In this document: piece after piece, positions 1,804 to 51,551 of the stretch
Numbering within the stretch: position 1 is the stretch's first letter
Layout of the letters: each line of letters opens with the position of its first letter
Assembly (NCBI RefSeq): GCF_053078305.1
Contig: NZ_CP166879.1
Direction: 5' to 3' (one strand)
Length of the DNA stretch: 64,000 nt
Made by a program: the position numbers and the translations under genes
The notes under the pieces: model-generated
Told to the model about the DNA's origin: nothing
The model's database searches: none
Seen by the model: only the letters and a program-made list of their open reading frames with translations

Positions 1804-1827
1804 GTATGCCTTTTTGTATGCCTTTTT
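1804..1827. repeat. Left direct repeat GTATGCCTTTTTGTATGCCTTTTT (putative att)
   Basis: Exact 24-bp copy of 10389-10412. Confidence 0.75.
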
Positions 1828-3265: not shown

Positions 3266-3676
3266 TCAGAACGGAATATTGTCACCGTAAGGGTCATCGC
3301 CTCCCACTGGTGGCTGATTACCCTGTGTGCCTGTGGTCCTGCGTCTGTTGCCACCTGGTCGCGCCGTTTTCGCACTGATTACGCTGTCTGCAATGACCTG
3401 ATAACCCTGCCGCGTTTCCCCGTTCTGTCCGGTCCACTGACTGACCTGCATCACACCGGATACGCTGATTACGTTGCCTTTCTCATGTCCTGCCAGTTGG
3501 TCGGCCTGTTTGCCAAATGCCAGGACAGACAGCCATAACGTTGCCTGCCCGTCCTGCGCCTGACTGCATGGCAGCGATACCGCCATACGTGCCAGCGTCA
3601 TCGGTGTGCCCTTACTGGTCTGTTTTGTCTGCGGGTCGTCAATCAGTCGCCCGTAAGCTGCTATCTGCGCTGTCAT
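3266..3676 (-). CDS. Single-stranded DNA-binding protein-like (OB-fold, acidic ...DDPYGDNIPF tail)
   Basis: 136-aa ORF; glycine-rich linker and C-terminal acidic tip ending IPF as in SSB. Confidence 0.55.
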   Translation of the reverse strand: MTAQIAAYGRLIDDPQTKQTSKGTPMTLARMAVSLPCSQAQDGQATLWLSVLAFGKQADQLAGHEKGNVISVSGVMQVSQWTGQNGETRQGYQVIADSVISAKTARPGGNRRRTTGTQGNQPPVGGDDPYGDNIPF

Positions 3677-3777
3677 GATTCCACCTCTCCGGTTTTAACG
3701 TTGATGGTTGTTACCTGTTCCGCTTCTGCAATCTCCCGCTCTGTCAGCGTGGTAAAGTTTGCCGCTGCTGTGCTCAT
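3673..3777 (-). CDS. Small ORF (34 aa, MSTAAANFTTLTEREIAEAEQVTTINVKTGEVES) translationally coupled to ssb-like gene (ATGA overlap)
   Basis: Hand-translated; not in ORF track because below length cutoff. Confidence 0.3.
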   Translation of the reverse strand: MSTAAANFTTLTEREIAEAEQVTTINVKTGEVES

Positions 3778-3915
3778 GAATGCACTTATCAGCCAGGGGG
3801 CTTTCGCGTGTCTTTCTGCCGTGTTGTGGCCCTTCGTTCATGAGCAAAACACTTAAATAAAACTAAAGTGATTTTCTGTGTTTTCGTGCTGCTCTGCTCT
3901 GTGTTTTTTTGCCGT

Positions 3916-4130
3916 TTACTCACCACTACTCACTTTTTTTACTCACTTTTTGGAATCGCTCACTTCGTCTCACCTGAGATTTTTGGTGTTTTTATGTGTG
4001 TGTTTTATAAGTGGTTTTTTACTACTCACTTTTTTGCCTATATACAGGTGAGAAAGTGAGTAATTTTGTTAATTTTTTGTAAAATTACTCACTTTACTCA
4101 CTTTTGCTCCTCACTTTTTTACAGCGGTAC
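3916..4130. repeat. Iteron array: at least 8 copies of ACTCACTTT (one inverted), AT-rich; candidate replication origin
   Basis: Repeats read directly (e.g. TACTCACCACTACTCACTTTTTTTACTCACTTTTT; AAAGTGAGTA inverted copy); immediately 3' of replication helicase gene. Confidence 0.6.
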
Positions 4131-5516
4131 TACGTCATCGCCGTCAATGCGTATAGTCTCGTCTTTCTCCAGTTTTGCTAACCATCGCCGCATGTTTTTC
4201 ACGTCATACCCAAGCCGTTTCATGTCGTCGCGCAACAACGAAATAGTGCACTTGTCGCCGTGCTGTGTGCGTGACCGGATGCAGCCCCATAGCGCGGTAT
4301 GGTTTTCCGTCTTGTTGCCAGCCTCCTCGATGCGCTCCACTTCAACGGGATGACGCGGCTTATCCACCACAACCAGAGACGTGATTAACTCCCCGTCAGC
4401 GTCGGTAAAAAGCTCAACTACCCGCAAATCGTAGGCAGCTTCTTTGAGTTCCTCTGCGTCCTTCATTTTGGTACATGAGATAACCAGCGCTTCGCTTCCT
4501 GCGTCCTCCCTGCGTATCCGGTATTCAGCATCCAGTGATGCACGAAATGCACTGGAACCACGCGCCCCCTTTGTTTCATCCTTGCCGGAATGGTGAACCA
4601 CCAGCACCGTTGCCCCTGTGCGCCGTTTCAGTTCGTCACACCCACGGATAAACGCCCCCATATCACGGGAATCATTTTCATCATTGCCACCAAAGCAACG
4701 CGCCAGCGTATCCAGAATAATCATGCGTACAGGTTTACCCGTTTCCCGTTCCACCTGGCGGGCAGCGATAACCATTTCATCAACATCAAGCGGGGCAGCC
4801 GGAAAGATGGGGCGGTTTACCAGATACAGATTTTTCACCTGCTCACCGTGCACAACCTCCCAGGCTTTTACACGACGCGGAACGCCGATACCGCCTTCAC
4901 CAACCACATAGAGAACAGCGCCATGCGCCACCCTGCGGCCTCCCCACTGGCGGCCCGTGGAAACGTGACACGCCCACGAACCCGCAAGGAACGATTTATA
5001 GGAACCGCTCGCCCCGTATATGCTGCACAGCGATACCGCCGGAATAATCCCCTTAACCACGTAATCCAGTTGCGTGTCATATCCGGCAGAACCAACGCTC
5101 ATCGGTAGCTTTGTTTTGCGCTGGTGGCCTTTTTCTTCCTGCTTTTCCCCGCGCTCCCGTTCCAGATATTCGCGCCAGTTCTCCCGCTTCTGGCTGTGCA
5201 TCCCATCGGGGTAGTAATTCGCATCCTGTACGCCTGCCGCTGCCAGTTTTTGCGCGATGGCATTAATATTTGATGGTCTGATATGGCTTGCTTTGTACAG
5301 CCGGACGCAATAGCGCCCCTCGTCAATGATTTTCGTGTCTGCCAGTTCTGCCAGTTGCTGCTCCCCAAGCCATACAGGTGGCACATTATCGCCAGCAAGT
5401 CGGCCCTCCTGCTCCTGCCACTGCTTCGCGTGTGCCCAGGCATCACTACCCACAAAAATAATGACCTCGGTCATTTTGTCGTAAGGCTGTTTTTTTAAGT
5501 TCGGTGCGCTTTTCAT
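4119..5516 (-). CDS. Replication initiator/helicase (RecA-fold, AAA_25/RepA-like; P4 alpha-like role)
   Basis: 465-aa ORF; Walker A GASGSYKS, Walker B MIILDTLARCF...; C-terminal putative DNA-binding region; adjacent iterons. Confidence 0.8.
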   Translation of the reverse strand: MKSAPNLKKQPYDKMTEVIIFVGSDAWAHAKQWQEQEGRLAGDNVPPVWLGEQQLAELADTKIIDEGRYCVRLYKASHIRPSNINAIAQKLAAAGVQDANYYPDGMHSQKRENWREYLERERGEKQEEKGHQRKTKLPMSVGSAGYDTQLDYVVKGIIPAVSLCSIYGASGSYKSFLAGSWACHVSTGRQWGGRRVAHGAVLYVVGEGGIGVPRRVKAWEVVHGEQVKNLYLVNRPIFPAAPLDVDEMVIAARQVERETGKPVRMIILDTLARCFGGNDENDSRDMGAFIRGCDELKRRTGATVLVVHHSGKDETKGARGSSAFRASLDAEYRIRREDAGSEALVISCTKMKDAEELKEAAYDLRVVELFTDADGELITSLVVVDKPRHPVEVERIEEAGNKTENHTALWGCIRSRTQHGDKCTISLLRDDMKRLGYDVKNMRRWLAKLEKDETIRIDGDDVVPL

Positions 5517-6363: not shown

Positions 6364-6649
6364 GTGAAAGGCTCCTATGTTTGAGGTAAGGAGTCTCGCT
6401 ACTACGCTGCTAAACATGGTGGCGAGACGTAACAGGGTTAGCAGACTGGCAACATAGAAACCAGCGAGCGCAAAGGCTCCCCCGTTACGCCCCGCCATAA
6501 TGCGGGTATGGGTAGGTTTACGGACACAAAAAAACCGCATATCGGAATGTAAGCGGCTGTCCGCTATGTTATTCAGGCTGCTAAACCCGGTCGCCATGTG
6601 GGTGACTCCGGCATCATACAGCCCGAAAGAAGAGGCGATCAACATGTTT

Positions 6650-6820: not shown

Positions 6821-7106
6821 GTGAAAGGCTCCTGTAGTGAAATTAAGGAGTCTCGCTACTACGCTGTCAAACATGGTGGCGAGACGTAACAGGGTTGACA
6901 GACTGGCACTACAGGAACCAGCGAGCGCAAAGGCTCCCCCGTTACGCCCCGCCATAATGCGGGTATGGGTAGGCTTACGGACACAAAAAAACCGCATATC
7001 GGAATGTAAGCGGCTGTCCGCTGTAGTATTCAGGCTGTCAAACCCGGTCGCCATGTGGACGACTCCGGCATCATACAGCCCGAAAGAAGAGGCGATCAAC
7101 ATGTTT

Positions 7107-7295: not shown

Positions 7296-7825
7296 GATGG
7301 CAGCCTCCTTTATCGTTGGGATATACCCACCGCTGGAGGTTCCAATCTCGCTGGCGGTGGACTGCACGGAGTTGGAACTACTGGCGATAAAGGAAACCAG
7401 CCTGACCGAAGTCAGCCCCATACAGCCCACCATTGATAAGGTGTGCGTGTGCGCCGATACAAAAAAAGACGCGTTCGGCGTCTGTATCGCCTTTATCTCC
7501 AGCGGGGTTCCAATCCCGACACCCGTTTTATGAGGTGCGCGGGAATCATAGCCATTTTTGATACTGGCGATCAACTGATTTTCTCTGGCGGGTATTTGGC
7601 GCGGATGCCTGTTACCTGTGGCAATATACACACGACTGTATACAATACACATCGGTTAACTCCTTATATTCCGTTGATGGCCCGTAGTGTTATTGCATTG
7701 CGGGTATTTTTTACCTGCCGTTAATTGAATGCGGCAAGGCATCACGACGGTTAACCCGTTTTGCATAACGTGAGGCGTTTTATTTTCTGCGCTGGTGGCT
7801 TTTATATTTCACATATGGGAATTTA

Positions 7826-8029
7826 TTATTCCTGCTGATAACGCTCCTCTACTTTCTTCTCAAGCCATGATTTCACCTCATCCTCAAACCAGCCAACGCG
7901 GCGTAATCCACGCTTAAAACCAGGAATAAATTCACCAGCCTTAACCATTGTGTCAATGCTCGTTGTACTAAGGCGAAGAAGATTTGCGACTTCTCGTTTT
8001 GTAAGGATTTTCTTTTCTGTAATGTTCAT
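7826..8029 (-). CDS. alpA: AlpA-family phage transcriptional regulator (HTH)
   Basis: 67-aa ORF, LTKREVANLLRLSTTSIDTMVKAGEFIP HTH typical of AlpA/prophage CP4-57 regulator family. Confidence 0.8.
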   Translation of the reverse strand: MNITEKKILTKREVANLLRLSTTSIDTMVKAGEFIPGFKRGLRRVGWFEDEVKSWLEKKVEERYQQE

Positions 8030-9067: not shown

Positions 9068-10348
9068 TTAACCGTTAACCATTTTTAACCCACGATAGCC
9101 ACCCGTGGCGCTTACGCTCCCGCTGGCAGCTGCCTCTACAAAATCCCCCCACCACGCCATTAACGGGCGTCGCTGCTCGAGATAGGTTGAGCGGTTGTAC
9201 GCACGGCGAACCTCGTTTTTATCTATGTGTGACAATGCCGCCTCGATTACGTCAGAGTCAAAACCTTGCTCGTTAAGTGCGGTACTTGCTATTGAGCGCA
9301 AGCCATGAGCAACCAGCCGCCCACTAAAACCCATGCGTTTTATTGCTGCGTTTGCTGTTTGTACGCACATATGGCGCTGCGGGTCGCTGTTGTGTGGAAA
9401 TATAAACTCACGATGCCCGCTTATTGGCTTCATGACGTCCAGAATGGCTAACGCCTGCTTCGAGAGTGGTATTACGTGTTCCCTGCGTTGTTTAAGTCTG
9501 TGCTCTGGTATGCGCCATTCCTTCACCTCAAAATCAATTTCACACCAGCGCGCGCCAGCTGCTTCACCTGGTCGGCAAATTGTCAGTAGCTGCCACTCAA
9601 TGACCAGCCGCGTTTGTCGTTCCACCCGTGCCGTTGCCAGCTTCTGCATAAATTCGGGGAGTTCTTCAGGGCGTATTGCTGGCATGTTCTTAACGCTTGG
9701 CGCGTTAAATGCCTTGCTTATCTCTGATGCCGGATTCGCGGCAATCATTCCGGTATTAACGGCGTAATACATGACCTCATTGATTCGCTGTGCTGTCCTT
9801 CTGACGGTATCTAATTTCCCCTGGGCGGCTAATGGTTTTAATGCTTCGATGAAATTGCTTGCTATCAGGTCTGCTATTGGCCTGTTACCGACTGACGGGA
9901 ATACATTACGCTCCAGCGAACGCCATATATCGCGTAGTGTATCTTCTGCGAGTCCTTGCCCTTTTTTAAGTTCAAACCAGAGCGTAGCTACATGCCTGAA
10001 GGTGTTCTCTCTCTTCATCACTTCACTAAGGCGCTGTTTCTCTCTGTGCTCTTTTGGGTCAATGCCACCAGAAAGAAGCGCTCTGTATTCGTCTTTTATC
10101 TTTCGCGCGCCCGCAATGCTGATTTCTGGATATGCGCCAATGCTTAACATGGCCCGTTTTTTTGTGTGTGGCTTGTAGTAGCGGTAACGCCACAAGCAAG
10201 AGGCGCTTTTGTGCTTAATCACCAGTTCCAGCCCTTCGCCGTCAGTGATGAAAAGGTCCTTTTTTTCGTTGCTGGCTTTTCGCTGGAGGCTTTTTATCGT
10301 TGCGGGTGATAAAGACTTAACTTTTTTGGTCACCGGTTCAACTCCCAT
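9068..10348 (-). CDS. int: Tyrosine site-specific integrase, P4-type
   Basis: 426-aa ORF; catalytic tail ...AHGLRSIASTAL...RAYNRSTY; adjacent to tRNA and att repeat. Confidence 0.9.
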   Translation of the reverse strand: MGVEPVTKKVKSLSPATIKSLQRKASNEKKDLFITDGEGLELVIKHKSASCLWRYRYYKPHTKKRAMLSIGAYPEISIAGARKIKDEYRALLSGGIDPKEHREKQRLSEVMKRENTFRHVATLWFELKKGQGLAEDTLRDIWRSLERNVFPSVGNRPIADLIASNFIEALKPLAAQGKLDTVRRTAQRINEVMYYAVNTGMIAANPASEISKAFNAPSVKNMPAIRPEELPEFMQKLATARVERQTRLVIEWQLLTICRPGEAAGARWCEIDFEVKEWRIPEHRLKQRREHVIPLSKQALAILDVMKPISGHREFIFPHNSDPQRHMCVQTANAAIKRMGFSGRLVAHGLRSIASTALNEQGFDSDVIEAALSHIDKNEVRRAYNRSTYLEQRRPLMAWWGDFVEAAASGSVSATGGYRGLKMVNG

Positions 10349-10388: not shown

Positions 10389-10412
10389 GTATGCCTTTTT
10401 GTATGCCTTTTT
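10389..10412. repeat. Right direct repeat GTATGCCTTTTTGTATGCCTTTTT (putative att)
   Basis: Exact 24-bp copy of 1804-1827, 41 bp upstream of int start. Confidence 0.75.
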
Positions 10413-10531: not shown

Positions 10532-10607
10532 TGGTGGCCCCTGCTGGACTTGAACCAGCGACCAAGCGATTATGAGTCGCCTGCTCTAACCACTGAGCTA
10601 AGGGGCC
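10532..10607 (-). tRNA. ileX: tRNA-Ile2 (anticodon CAU, lysidine-modified), 76 nt with encoded CCA
   Basis: Reverse complement reads GGCCCCTTAGCTCAGTGGTTAGAGCAGGCGACTCATAATCGCTTGGTCGCTGGTTCAAGTCCAGCAGGGGCCACCA; cloverleaf and CAT anticodon. Confidence 0.9.
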
Positions 10608-50505: not shown

Positions 50506-51551
50506 GTCGGATAATGAACGTCGGGCTACGCCCACTACGTGTTGGTAAGTTTTCGACACTGGTACGCCCTAAAAATCTGGTGTTGCTTGGTGGGCTGTTT
50601 CTGTTTGCGGTTGGAATACTGATATTCGGTCTGATGCATGGTTCTTTTTCTGTCCCGGCATCGGAAGTAGGACGAGCGTTGTTTGCTCCAGAAAACGTAA
50701 GCACAGACGCACGTTATATTGTGCAGGATATTCGCTTGCCGAGAGTCATCATGGCATTGCTATGCGGAGCCATGTTAGGTATGGCGGGGGCCGCGATGCA
50801 ATCCATTGCGCGTAACGGCCTTGCCGATCCTGGTTTAATCGGCGTCAAAGAAGGATGTAGCGTGGCGGTGCTGTGGCTGATTTTCCAGTTTCCAATGCTG
50901 GGAATGTTCTGGCGTCCAGTGGCTGGTCTTGCTGGTGGCTTGTTGGTGGCTTTAATCGTGATTTTTTGTGCACGCGATATTTCCCGCCCGCGATTTGTTC
51001 TGATTGGTATTGGTGTTTCCTGGTTTTTCGCCGCCGGTATCGGTGTATTTATGACCACTGCAGATGTTCGAGATGTACAAACTGCATTGATGTGGTTATC
51101 GGGAAGCCTGCATGCAGCTAACTGGATGTTAGTCGGTATTTCAGCCTGTTGGATGTTGCCAGCCACTCTTTTATTGCTGTTCACCGCCAGGACGGCGGAT
51201 ATCGCTCTGCTTGGTCATCAGGTTGCAACCGGGTTAGGGGTGAATAGTTCTCGTCTGGCGTTGTTACGTGTCGCCGCACCAATAATCCTGACAGCCGTCT
51301 GCGTTTCGTGTGTTGGTAACATCGGTTTTGTCGGATTGATAGCACCCCATATATCACGTTTTATTCTACGTGGCGGGCAGACGACATTACTGCTGGGGAG
51401 CGCCGTATCGGGGGCGTTGTTAGTCATCCTGGCGGATAGCATTGGTCGTTTGGCTTTTTTGCCTTTGCAACTGCCTGCCGGAATCATTATTTCATTGATT
51501 GGTGGACCATTCTTTTTGCTACTGCTCTGGCAGTGCAGGAACAGTTTTTAA
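50502..51551 (+). CDS. ABC permease (FecCD family), second subunit
   Basis: 349-aa polytopic membrane protein. Confidence 0.8.
   Translation: MSRIMNVGLRPLRVGKFSTLVRPKNLVLLGGLFLFAVGILIFGLMHGSFSVPASEVGRALFAPENVSTDARYIVQDIRLPRVIMALLCGAMLGMAGAAMQSIARNGLADPGLIGVKEGCSVAVLWLIFQFPMLGMFWRPVAGLAGGLLVALIVIFCARDISRPRFVLIGIGVSWFFAAGIGVFMTTADVRDVQTALMWLSGSLHAANWMLVGISACWMLPATLLLLFTARTADIALLGHQVATGLGVNSSRLALLRVAAPIILTAVCVSCVGNIGFVGLIAPHISRFILRGGQTTLLLGSAVSGALLVILADSIGRLAFLPLQLPAGIIISLIGGPFFLLLLWQCRNSF

Follow-up and report, generated by a model that had tools for sequence, protein, structure and literature searches.

The 8.6-kb island beside tRNA-Ile(CAT) in contig NZ_CP166879.1 (assembly GCF_053078305.1) raises the question of what the short repeats immediately 3' of its replication helicase gene, rep, are for. 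The window analyzed here is a stretch of 64,000 nucleotides of this contig, and its host is Escherichia coli, because the mug-rpoD flank is 99.8% identical to that species. The island is of the type of phage satellite called a phage-inducible chromosomal island (PICI), and the repeats very probably constitute its vegetative replication origin, judging from comparison of homologous loci, structure prediction, and analogy with studied satellites. Four lines of evidence support this identification: the anatomy of the array, its conservation across loci, the predicted fold of the C-terminus of Rep, and covariation between that fold and the repeats. A first-pass annotation had proposed an origin to which the neighboring Rep binds, with a C-terminal extension as the possible DNA-binding domain, and the comparative and structural results argue for that proposal.

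The array is dense, distinctive, and found once. It spans positions 3917–4117 and consists of nine direct and two inverted copies of an iteron spelled TACTCACTTT on the + strand and AAAGTGAGTA on the gene (−) strand. The CTCAC/GTGAG core occurs 11 times in 3905–4135, against 0.35 expected from its window-wide frequency (∼30-fold enrichment), and the densest other 230-bp stretch of the window has at most three copies. Exact matches to ACTCACTTT number six (five on the + strand and one on the − strand, 3928–4104), with none elsewhere in the 64 kb, and a seventh copy at 4109 has one mismatch. No second cluster of the motif is present in the island or the window. The count agrees with the initial estimate of at least eight copies, whereas the single inverted copy then reported was an undercount, there being two. 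Nor is CAGGTGAGAAAGTGAGTA the head-to-head pair it was taken for, because the two inverted copies are in tandem with each other; they face the three copies at 4086–4117. GC content is 0.32–0.36 over the array versus ∼0.55 in the flanking genes, which bears out its description as AT rich.

The placement and internal layout of the array are consistent with an initiation site. The first iteron core lies 4 nt past the rep stop codon (4119–4121, gene on the − strand), and the array occupies, as first described, the interval between that stop and the small open reading frame (ORF) coupled to ssb (table 1). Reading away from rep, there are three direct copies, a 23-bp spacer, two inverted copies, an TATATACAGG element, one direct copy, a 46-bp gap, and five direct copies. 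Six proximal copies (4023–4117) and five distal copies (3917–3976) thus flank the central gap. Iteron orientation is opposed across the 4063–4085 spacer (three vs. two) and uniform across the central gap. In the alignment of homologues, the CCTGTATA columns are almost invariant. No DnaA box (TTWTNCACA or a relaxed form), IHF site, or GATC occurs in 3840–4140. Two + strand ORFs that overlap the region (3868–4059 and 4066–4353) are present mechanically, and no coding sequence is annotated at these places in the 97%-identical RefSeq locus; they had been called spurious and should be treated as non-genes in annotation. An Rfam scan of the array recovered no RNA family, only a chance miRNA match (E = 0.05). 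Folding of the array as single-stranded DNA gave z = −2.7, a score driven by the inverted iterons, and we did not take it as evidence of a structured element.

Conservation was assessed in eight further E. coli loci and in 80 loci sampled at one genome per species. In nearly all loci that encode the full C-terminus of Rep, the rep stop codon is followed after only a few bases by an array, and arrays occupy this position in E. coli and in ∼60 other Enterobacterales species. Layout is conserved across the nine E. coli loci and Xenorhabdus and is recognizable in Kosakonia, Serratia, Pectobacterium, Photorhabdus, and Morganella, among others. Each iteron, of 9–10 bp in the window, has one fixed and one variable half: the left half, AAAGTG, is invariant and the right half differs by allele. 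The variants are GTGAGTA in the window, GTGGGGA in the PICI of O157:H7 (L002), GTGAGGA in L006 and Xenorhabdus, GTGGGCA in L007 and L008, GTGGGGG in the Serratia–Pectobacterium group, and GTGCGGC in the Kosakonia group. Within one allele, all copies share the variant, inverted copies included, and spacing is fixed. In the O157:H7 PICI, for example, every copy has GTGGG in place of GTGAG while AAAGTG and the spacing are unchanged. Approximately 11 dispersed copies changing in concert is as expected from selection on the sites of one protein. Among 5,426 complete E. coli genomes, 568 encode a near-full-length rep and 589 have related arrays.

The protein in question would be Rep itself. The gene encodes a helicase-initiator whose 97%-identical orthologue (L001) is named helicase RepA family protein in RefSeq. 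An AlphaFold2 model based on a 68-sequence alignment is modest overall (predicted local distance difference test, pLDDT, of 75), with the last 62 residues at pLDDT 90–94 and arranged as three helices and a hairpin. Modeled alone, this C-terminal domain reaches a pLDDT of 90.1. Its predicted fold matches the winged helices of MCM, IclR/PcaR, RPA2, and SelB with template modeling scores of 0.6–0.7 and weak E-values (the domain has ∼70 residues). The third helix, VKNMRRWLAKLEK, is the predicted recognition helix. Across the Rep family, K440, R444, and W445 are invariant, and variation in the otherwise conserved domain falls mostly at residues 438–442. These include Asn441, which lies within helix 3 and is encoded at 4194–4196.

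Variation in helix 3 correlates with variation in the iterons. We compared the ∼70 loci whose Rep reaches the C-terminus, counting cores in the 260 bp after the rep stop codon and assigning a majority type where at least three copies were present. Loci with K-N-F or K-N-M in helix 3 have 188 GTGAG cores versus 3 GTGGG, and GTGAG is the majority in 23 of 24 loci, the other one being without an array. The proportions reverse with K-H-F or K-H-L (88 GTGGG vs. 3 GTGAG), where GTGGG is the majority in nine of 11 loci and two are without an array. Loci with K-K-F have 134 GTGGG cores, in the form GTGGGGG (majority in 27 of 31 loci), and those with R-K-S-F have 28 GTGCG cores (majority in five of five loci). 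In terms of residues, the pairings are Asn441–GTGAG, His–GTGGG, Lys-Lys–GTGGGGG, and Arg-Lys-Ser–GTGCGGC. The Asn/His alternative, with the matching array each time, is seen in three E. coli domain backgrounds (L002/L006, L004/L005, and the window/L007 and L008), and it recurs in Xenorhabdus and in Kosakonia-like genera. The C-terminal domains of L002 and L006 differ by only four residues, of which the Asn/His residue is one. This is the pattern that a direct relationship between reader and site predicts, and by it, what determines specificity would lie within the helix predicted to make the recognition.

The covariation also bears on whether the repeats serve some other factor. One of the other island regulators (Mor, PerC, or AlpA) might bind them, or they might be a packaging signal or no more than AT-rich intergenic DNA of low complexity, in keeping with the base composition of the region and the regulators encoded nearby. 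We consider this very improbable. The motif variant follows the C-terminal helix of Rep and not the downstream genes, which are capsid modules, ProQ, or Mor depending on the locus; the packaging-related genes of relatives are kilobases distant; and the core enrichment is far above background. It is quite possible, if a little short of probable, that the last ∼30 codons of rep (recognition helix and wing) can be exchanged together with the adjacent array, as a cassette that confers specificity. Replicon identity would then depend largely on a single helix position, where Asn441 would read A at the fourth base of the iteron, His or Lys would read G, and Ser (in R-K-S-F) would read C. The repeated Asn/His alternative in E. 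coli, Xenorhabdus, and Kosakonia-like genera fits this proposal.

In L006 (E. coli UMNF18), extra iteron-like GTGAGTA and CCTCAC copies surround a TATATA center ∼250 bp past the main array (1023–1300 of that locus) and may represent a partial second origin. Xenorhabdus hominickii has three RepA-type loci (L018, L019, and L022) that share one helix type and all have GTGAGGA iterons; therefore, orthogonality among co-resident modules is not a strict rule. Two RepA-type loci (L014 and L026) are present in one genome of X. yunnanensis.

Among known systems, the closest model for the arrangement in the window is the rep-ori unit of PICIs and of Staphylococcus aureus pathogenicity islands (SaPIs). 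According to PMC6092414, PICI origins lie directly 3' of rep and have an AT-rich region flanked by two iteron sets, a design tested for replication in EcCICFT073, and E. coli PICIs have AlpA as their master activator. The replication initiators of SaPIs contact their iterons with a winged helix at the C-terminus and need no separate loader, and SaPI iterons are opposed in direction across an AT-rich region (PMC9371898). Autonomous replication from a rep-ori segment, with both parts required, is on record only for EcCICFT073 and SaPIs (PMC6092414, PMC9371898). Like SaPI1, SaPIbov1, and EcCICFT073, the window has a putative origin directly 3' of rep, in which two sets of short iterons, some copies of them inverted, flank an AT-rich region. 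Also shared are a helicase Rep with a C-terminal winged helix, here a predicted one, the lack of a DnaA box, and the int, alpA, and perC genes in a unidirectional order. The layout departs from the simple two-block design, since its iterons form three blocks with two AT-rich gaps between them. We found neither the iteron sequences nor the window Rep allele in the text and supplements of PMC6092414, where the iteron maps are in a figure, and a literature search recovered no description of the origin of a RepA-type module.

A closely related replication module is that of the PICI of O157:H7. Its DUF4222-rep-ori-ssb-perC unit is orthologous to that of the window, with 87% nucleotide identity and identical iteron slots, and the two differ in having GTGGGGA with His441 in L002 versus GTGAGTA with Asn441 in the window. 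In the O157:H7 element, this unit is followed by genes for capsid, protease, and portal proteins and by HNH, terS, and terL, as in the capsid-forming type of PICI (cf-PICI), and the element fits the description of a 15.5-kb EDL933 element with HNH and terL (supplement of PMC6092414). That element was later named EcCIEDL933, and it is reported to replicate on helper induction. Instead of the full capsid/terminase module, the window island has Mor and two tRNA-like genes.

Phage P4 provides both a weaker parallel and an alternative explanation. In P4, the crr repeat cluster lies directly 3' of the alpha gene, the ori is ∼4.5 kb away, and two cis sites are needed. As in P4, the window has a helicase-initiator that would act on short repeats, a cluster 3' of its gene, and an integrative satellite with Ash/AlpA-type regulators. 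A comparison with P4 type I iterons, suggested at first pass, revealed no relationship. The P4 repeat is TGTTCACC, which occurs once in the window, at 51178; GTGAGTA is absent from P4; and Rep shows no detectable similarity to alpha by BLASTP (best E = 2). With a different repeat, a second cis site, and an alpha protein unlike Rep, membership in the P4 ori/crr type was rejected, and logic is all that the two have in common. The P4 precedent nevertheless allows that the array is bound by Rep and is not the start site itself, serving instead as an enhancer, as a handcuffing or copy-control site like crr, or as an operator for read-through into ssb-perC-mor, given that transcription must cross the array because all island genes are co-directional. 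This is improbable. The motif forms no second cluster that could be the ori proper, published PICI origins map to this very position (PMC6092414), and the AT-rich gaps between iteron sets have the layout of melting sites. In addition, no sigma-70-like promoter and no gene-strand terminator are predicted in 3600–4300, where the sole terminator-like site (4023–4062, + strand) is the inverted-iteron hairpin.

The helicase core of Rep belongs to the same Pfam family, AAA_25, as RepA of the IncQ plasmid RSF1010. IncQ plasmids have a separate iteron-binding protein, RepC, iterons of ∼20 bp, and a dedicated primase, RepB'. In the window, by contrast, helicase and predicted DNA-binding domain belong to one polypeptide, the repeat unit is 9–10 bp, and Pfam and PHROGs searches of the island ORFs revealed no homologue of RepC or RepB' and no separate initiator. 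An origin of the IncQ/Rep_3 iteron plasmid type, with units of ∼17–22 bp and usually DnaA boxes, does not fit a short unit that lacks both a DnaA box and a separate initiator.

An origin of the PICI design would be expected to work as follows. By analogy with SaPI Reps (PMC9371898) and the pri-rep-ori of EcCICFT073 (PMC6092414), we infer that binding, melting, and self-loading are carried out by Rep. The winged helix of each Rep protomer would dock on one iteron, with K440, R444, and W445 reading AAAGTG and residues 438–442, notably Asn441, reading the variable bases. Rep oligomers formed on the two iteron sets would melt an AT-rich spacer and self-load as the replicative helicase. DnaA would be dispensable, there being no DnaA box, IHF site, or GATC. 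The SSB of the island, likely an accessory of the replicon, would coat and stabilize the unwound DNA. Priming would come from the host or the helper, as presumed from the E. coli allele of Rep being without a Zn-ribbon/Toprim primase domain. Replication would fire on helper-phage induction via AlpA, as in other E. coli PICIs.

Several points weigh against the identification of the array as an origin in use. Binding of the array by Rep and its function in replication are both reached by comparison, modeling, and analogy. There are two rival candidates for the melting site, 4063–4085 and 3977–4022. The motor of Rep is of the AAA_25/RecA-fold, superfamily 4 (SF4) type, not of the SF3 or MCM-like SF6 types of SaPI Reps (PMC9371898), and therefore polarity and loading geometry may differ from the SaPI model. 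Linkage and cassette recombination contribute to the association of helix and iteron, and because the recognition-helix codons are only ∼75 bp from the array, some association is expected even without direct contact. Six homologues (L027, L067, L069, L070, L071, and L079) have no clear array within 330 bp. The main doubt concerns present-day function. The island looks reduced, with no packaging or interference genes and no capsid or terminase genes recognized by Pfam and PHROGs, unlike its 15-kb O157:H7 relative; truncation has affected the small ORFs that separate the origin from ssb; and an Ash gene is a pseudogene in the nearest relative (L001). The replicon may therefore be out of use.

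Taken further, these signs would make the array a relic of a decaying PICI that lost its packaging module and no longer uses its origin. The rarity of the allele is in keeping with such decay, the exact GTGAGTA allele being present at ≥90% identity in only seven of the 5,426 complete E. coli genomes. We regard this as unlikely. The rep ORF is complete and encodes all residues that are invariant in the family, the core is kept in 10 of 11 iterons in the 97% relative, and int, alpA, and ssb are intact ORFs. A relic would moreover concern the present use of the array rather than the identity of the sequence. A replication origin is the reading we prefer.

Table 1. Features of the rep-array region and of the surrounding island (positions in the window; iteron sequences in + strand spelling).
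Coordinates	Strand	Feature	Evidence or remark
1804–1827		direct repeat of 24 bp, GTATGCCTTTTTGTATGCCTTTTT; probable end of island, nfeF side	identical copy at 10389–10412
3266–3676	−	island SSB	Pfam SSB E = 2e-15; phrog_44
3673–3777	−	34-codon ORF, stop overlaps ssb start; remnant of two small ORFs intact in O157:H7 PICI (L002)	incomplete pseudogene in L001
3917–3976	−	distal iterons, five direct: 3967–3976 GTCTCACCTG, 3957–3966 CGCTCACTTC, 3940–3949, 3927–3936, 3917–3926 (TACTCAC core)	five slots kept in homologues
3977–4022		central 46-bp gap, 74% A+T, between two iteron sets; second candidate melting site	conserved AAAAA..TT..AAACA columns
4023–4044	−	single direct iteron 4023–4032 TACTCACTTT and conserved TATATACAGG (CCTGTATATA on gene strand) at dyad center	inverted repeat I2
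4045–4062	+	two inverted iterons: 4045–4054 CAGGTGAGAA, 4053–4062 AAAGTGAGTA	inverted in same slots in homologues, vary with rest of array
4063–4085		short spacer between convergent iterons, ∼92% A+T; candidate melting site	AT rich in most E. coli homologues
4086–4117	−	Rep-proximal iterons, three direct: 4108–4117 TCCTCACTTT, 4095–4104 TACTCACTTT, 4086–4095 TACTCACTTT	slots kept in all E. coli homologues
4119–5516	−	rep, 465-residue RepA-family helicase-initiator	Pfam AAA_25 E = 9e-43; full-length match to phrog_2850
		Rep domains: N-terminal ∼1–130, AAA_25 core 147–314, C-terminal winged helix 404–465	
4122–4307	−	predicted winged helix, codons 404–465 (helices 404–418, 425–434, 439–451; strands 455–458, 461–464)	AlphaFold2
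4164–4202	−	predicted recognition helix (helix 3), codons 439–451	AlphaFold2 model, family alignment
7826–8029	−	AlpA-type helix-turn-helix regulator	Pfam Phage_AlpA 23 bits (cut-off 21), HTH_17
9068–10348	−	tyrosine integrase	Pfam Phage_integrase, Phage_int_M, Arm-DNA-bind_3
10389–10412		24-bp direct repeat, second copy, probable island end near tRNA-Ile(CAT)	

At the level of the element, the island has the traits of a PICI, including int, alpA, gene order in one direction, a size of 8.6 kb (∼8–15 kb in PICIs), and flanking repeats beside tRNA-Ile(CAT), which is located at 10532–10607. All of its genes are on the − strand, in the order integrase, a 298-residue protein without an assigned function, AlpA-type regulator, Ash/Icd-like ORFs, DUF4222, rep, array, short ORF, ssb, perC, and mor. 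The 24-bp repeats are the probable att sites. The repeat is itself an internal 12-bp duplication and lies ∼120 bp from tRNA-Ile(CAT), outside the gene. Between 6193 and 7652 (− strand) are three tandem units of ∼457 bp. Each unit contains a C4 antisense RNA (Rfam RF01695, 72–78 bits; 6415–6502, 6872–6959, and 7350–7437) and an isrK-like RNA, and two have a c4 a1b1 target. These elements overlap Icd-like and Ash ORFs, and from its sequence, the segment resembles an immunity cassette of the P1 C4/icd/ant type present in three copies. Past mor are two tRNA-like genes (− strand, 1985–2066 and ∼2090–2185), the first of which scores 35 bits against the Rfam tRNA model. ARAGORN reported neither, and their RefSeq orthologues are annotated as tRNA-Tyr and tRNA-OTHER. 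Between the mor stop codon and these genes (2260–2330), a second short-repeat array, TTTCAC in five to six copies, could be a Mor-dependent promoter region.

A fold search with the full-length Rep model returned only weak RecA-fold matches, the best among solved structures being T7 gp4, and nothing useful for the N-terminal domain, and at the sequence level Rep matched no solved structure. In a phage collection, megablast with the module found no match, and the tblastn matches were limited to distant AAA_25 helicases, none of them related over the full length. In other genera, the relatives of Rep are fusions of 680–700 residues with Zn-ribbon, Toprim, and AAA_25 domains, and the 130-residue N-terminal domain of the E. 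coli allele stands where these relatives carry the Zn-ribbon/Toprim. Residues 1–130 (5127–5516) have no Pfam match and are given an alpha/beta fold by AlphaFold2. Together with the upstream DUF4222, this domain shares 67–87% nucleotide identity with DUF927 and D5/P4-family PICI primases in many E. coli genomes, which from sequence indicates domain shuffling at a fixed junction. The other E. coli PICIs that share only the N-terminal domain are annotated as having DNA-primase-family, DUF927, or P4-family primases.

The array is a sound example of an already-described design of PICI origin and in that respect is not surprising. Its identification nonetheless provides a defined candidate origin, and a domain predicted to read DNA, for the RepA-type replication module, which is present in approximately one-tenth of complete E. 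coli genomes and in the cf-PICIs of O157:H7, for which we found no dissection of the origin in the literature. The correspondence between helix and iteron is the most interesting by-product, since matched variants such as L002 and L006 are natural test pairs for replicon specificity and for incompatibility among phage satellites. If the tentative cassette proposal is true, this family of SF4-type, self-loading initiator-helicases would have a simple, readable, and re-programmable protein–DNA code, and that code could sort co-resident PICIs and cf-PICIs into compatibility groups.

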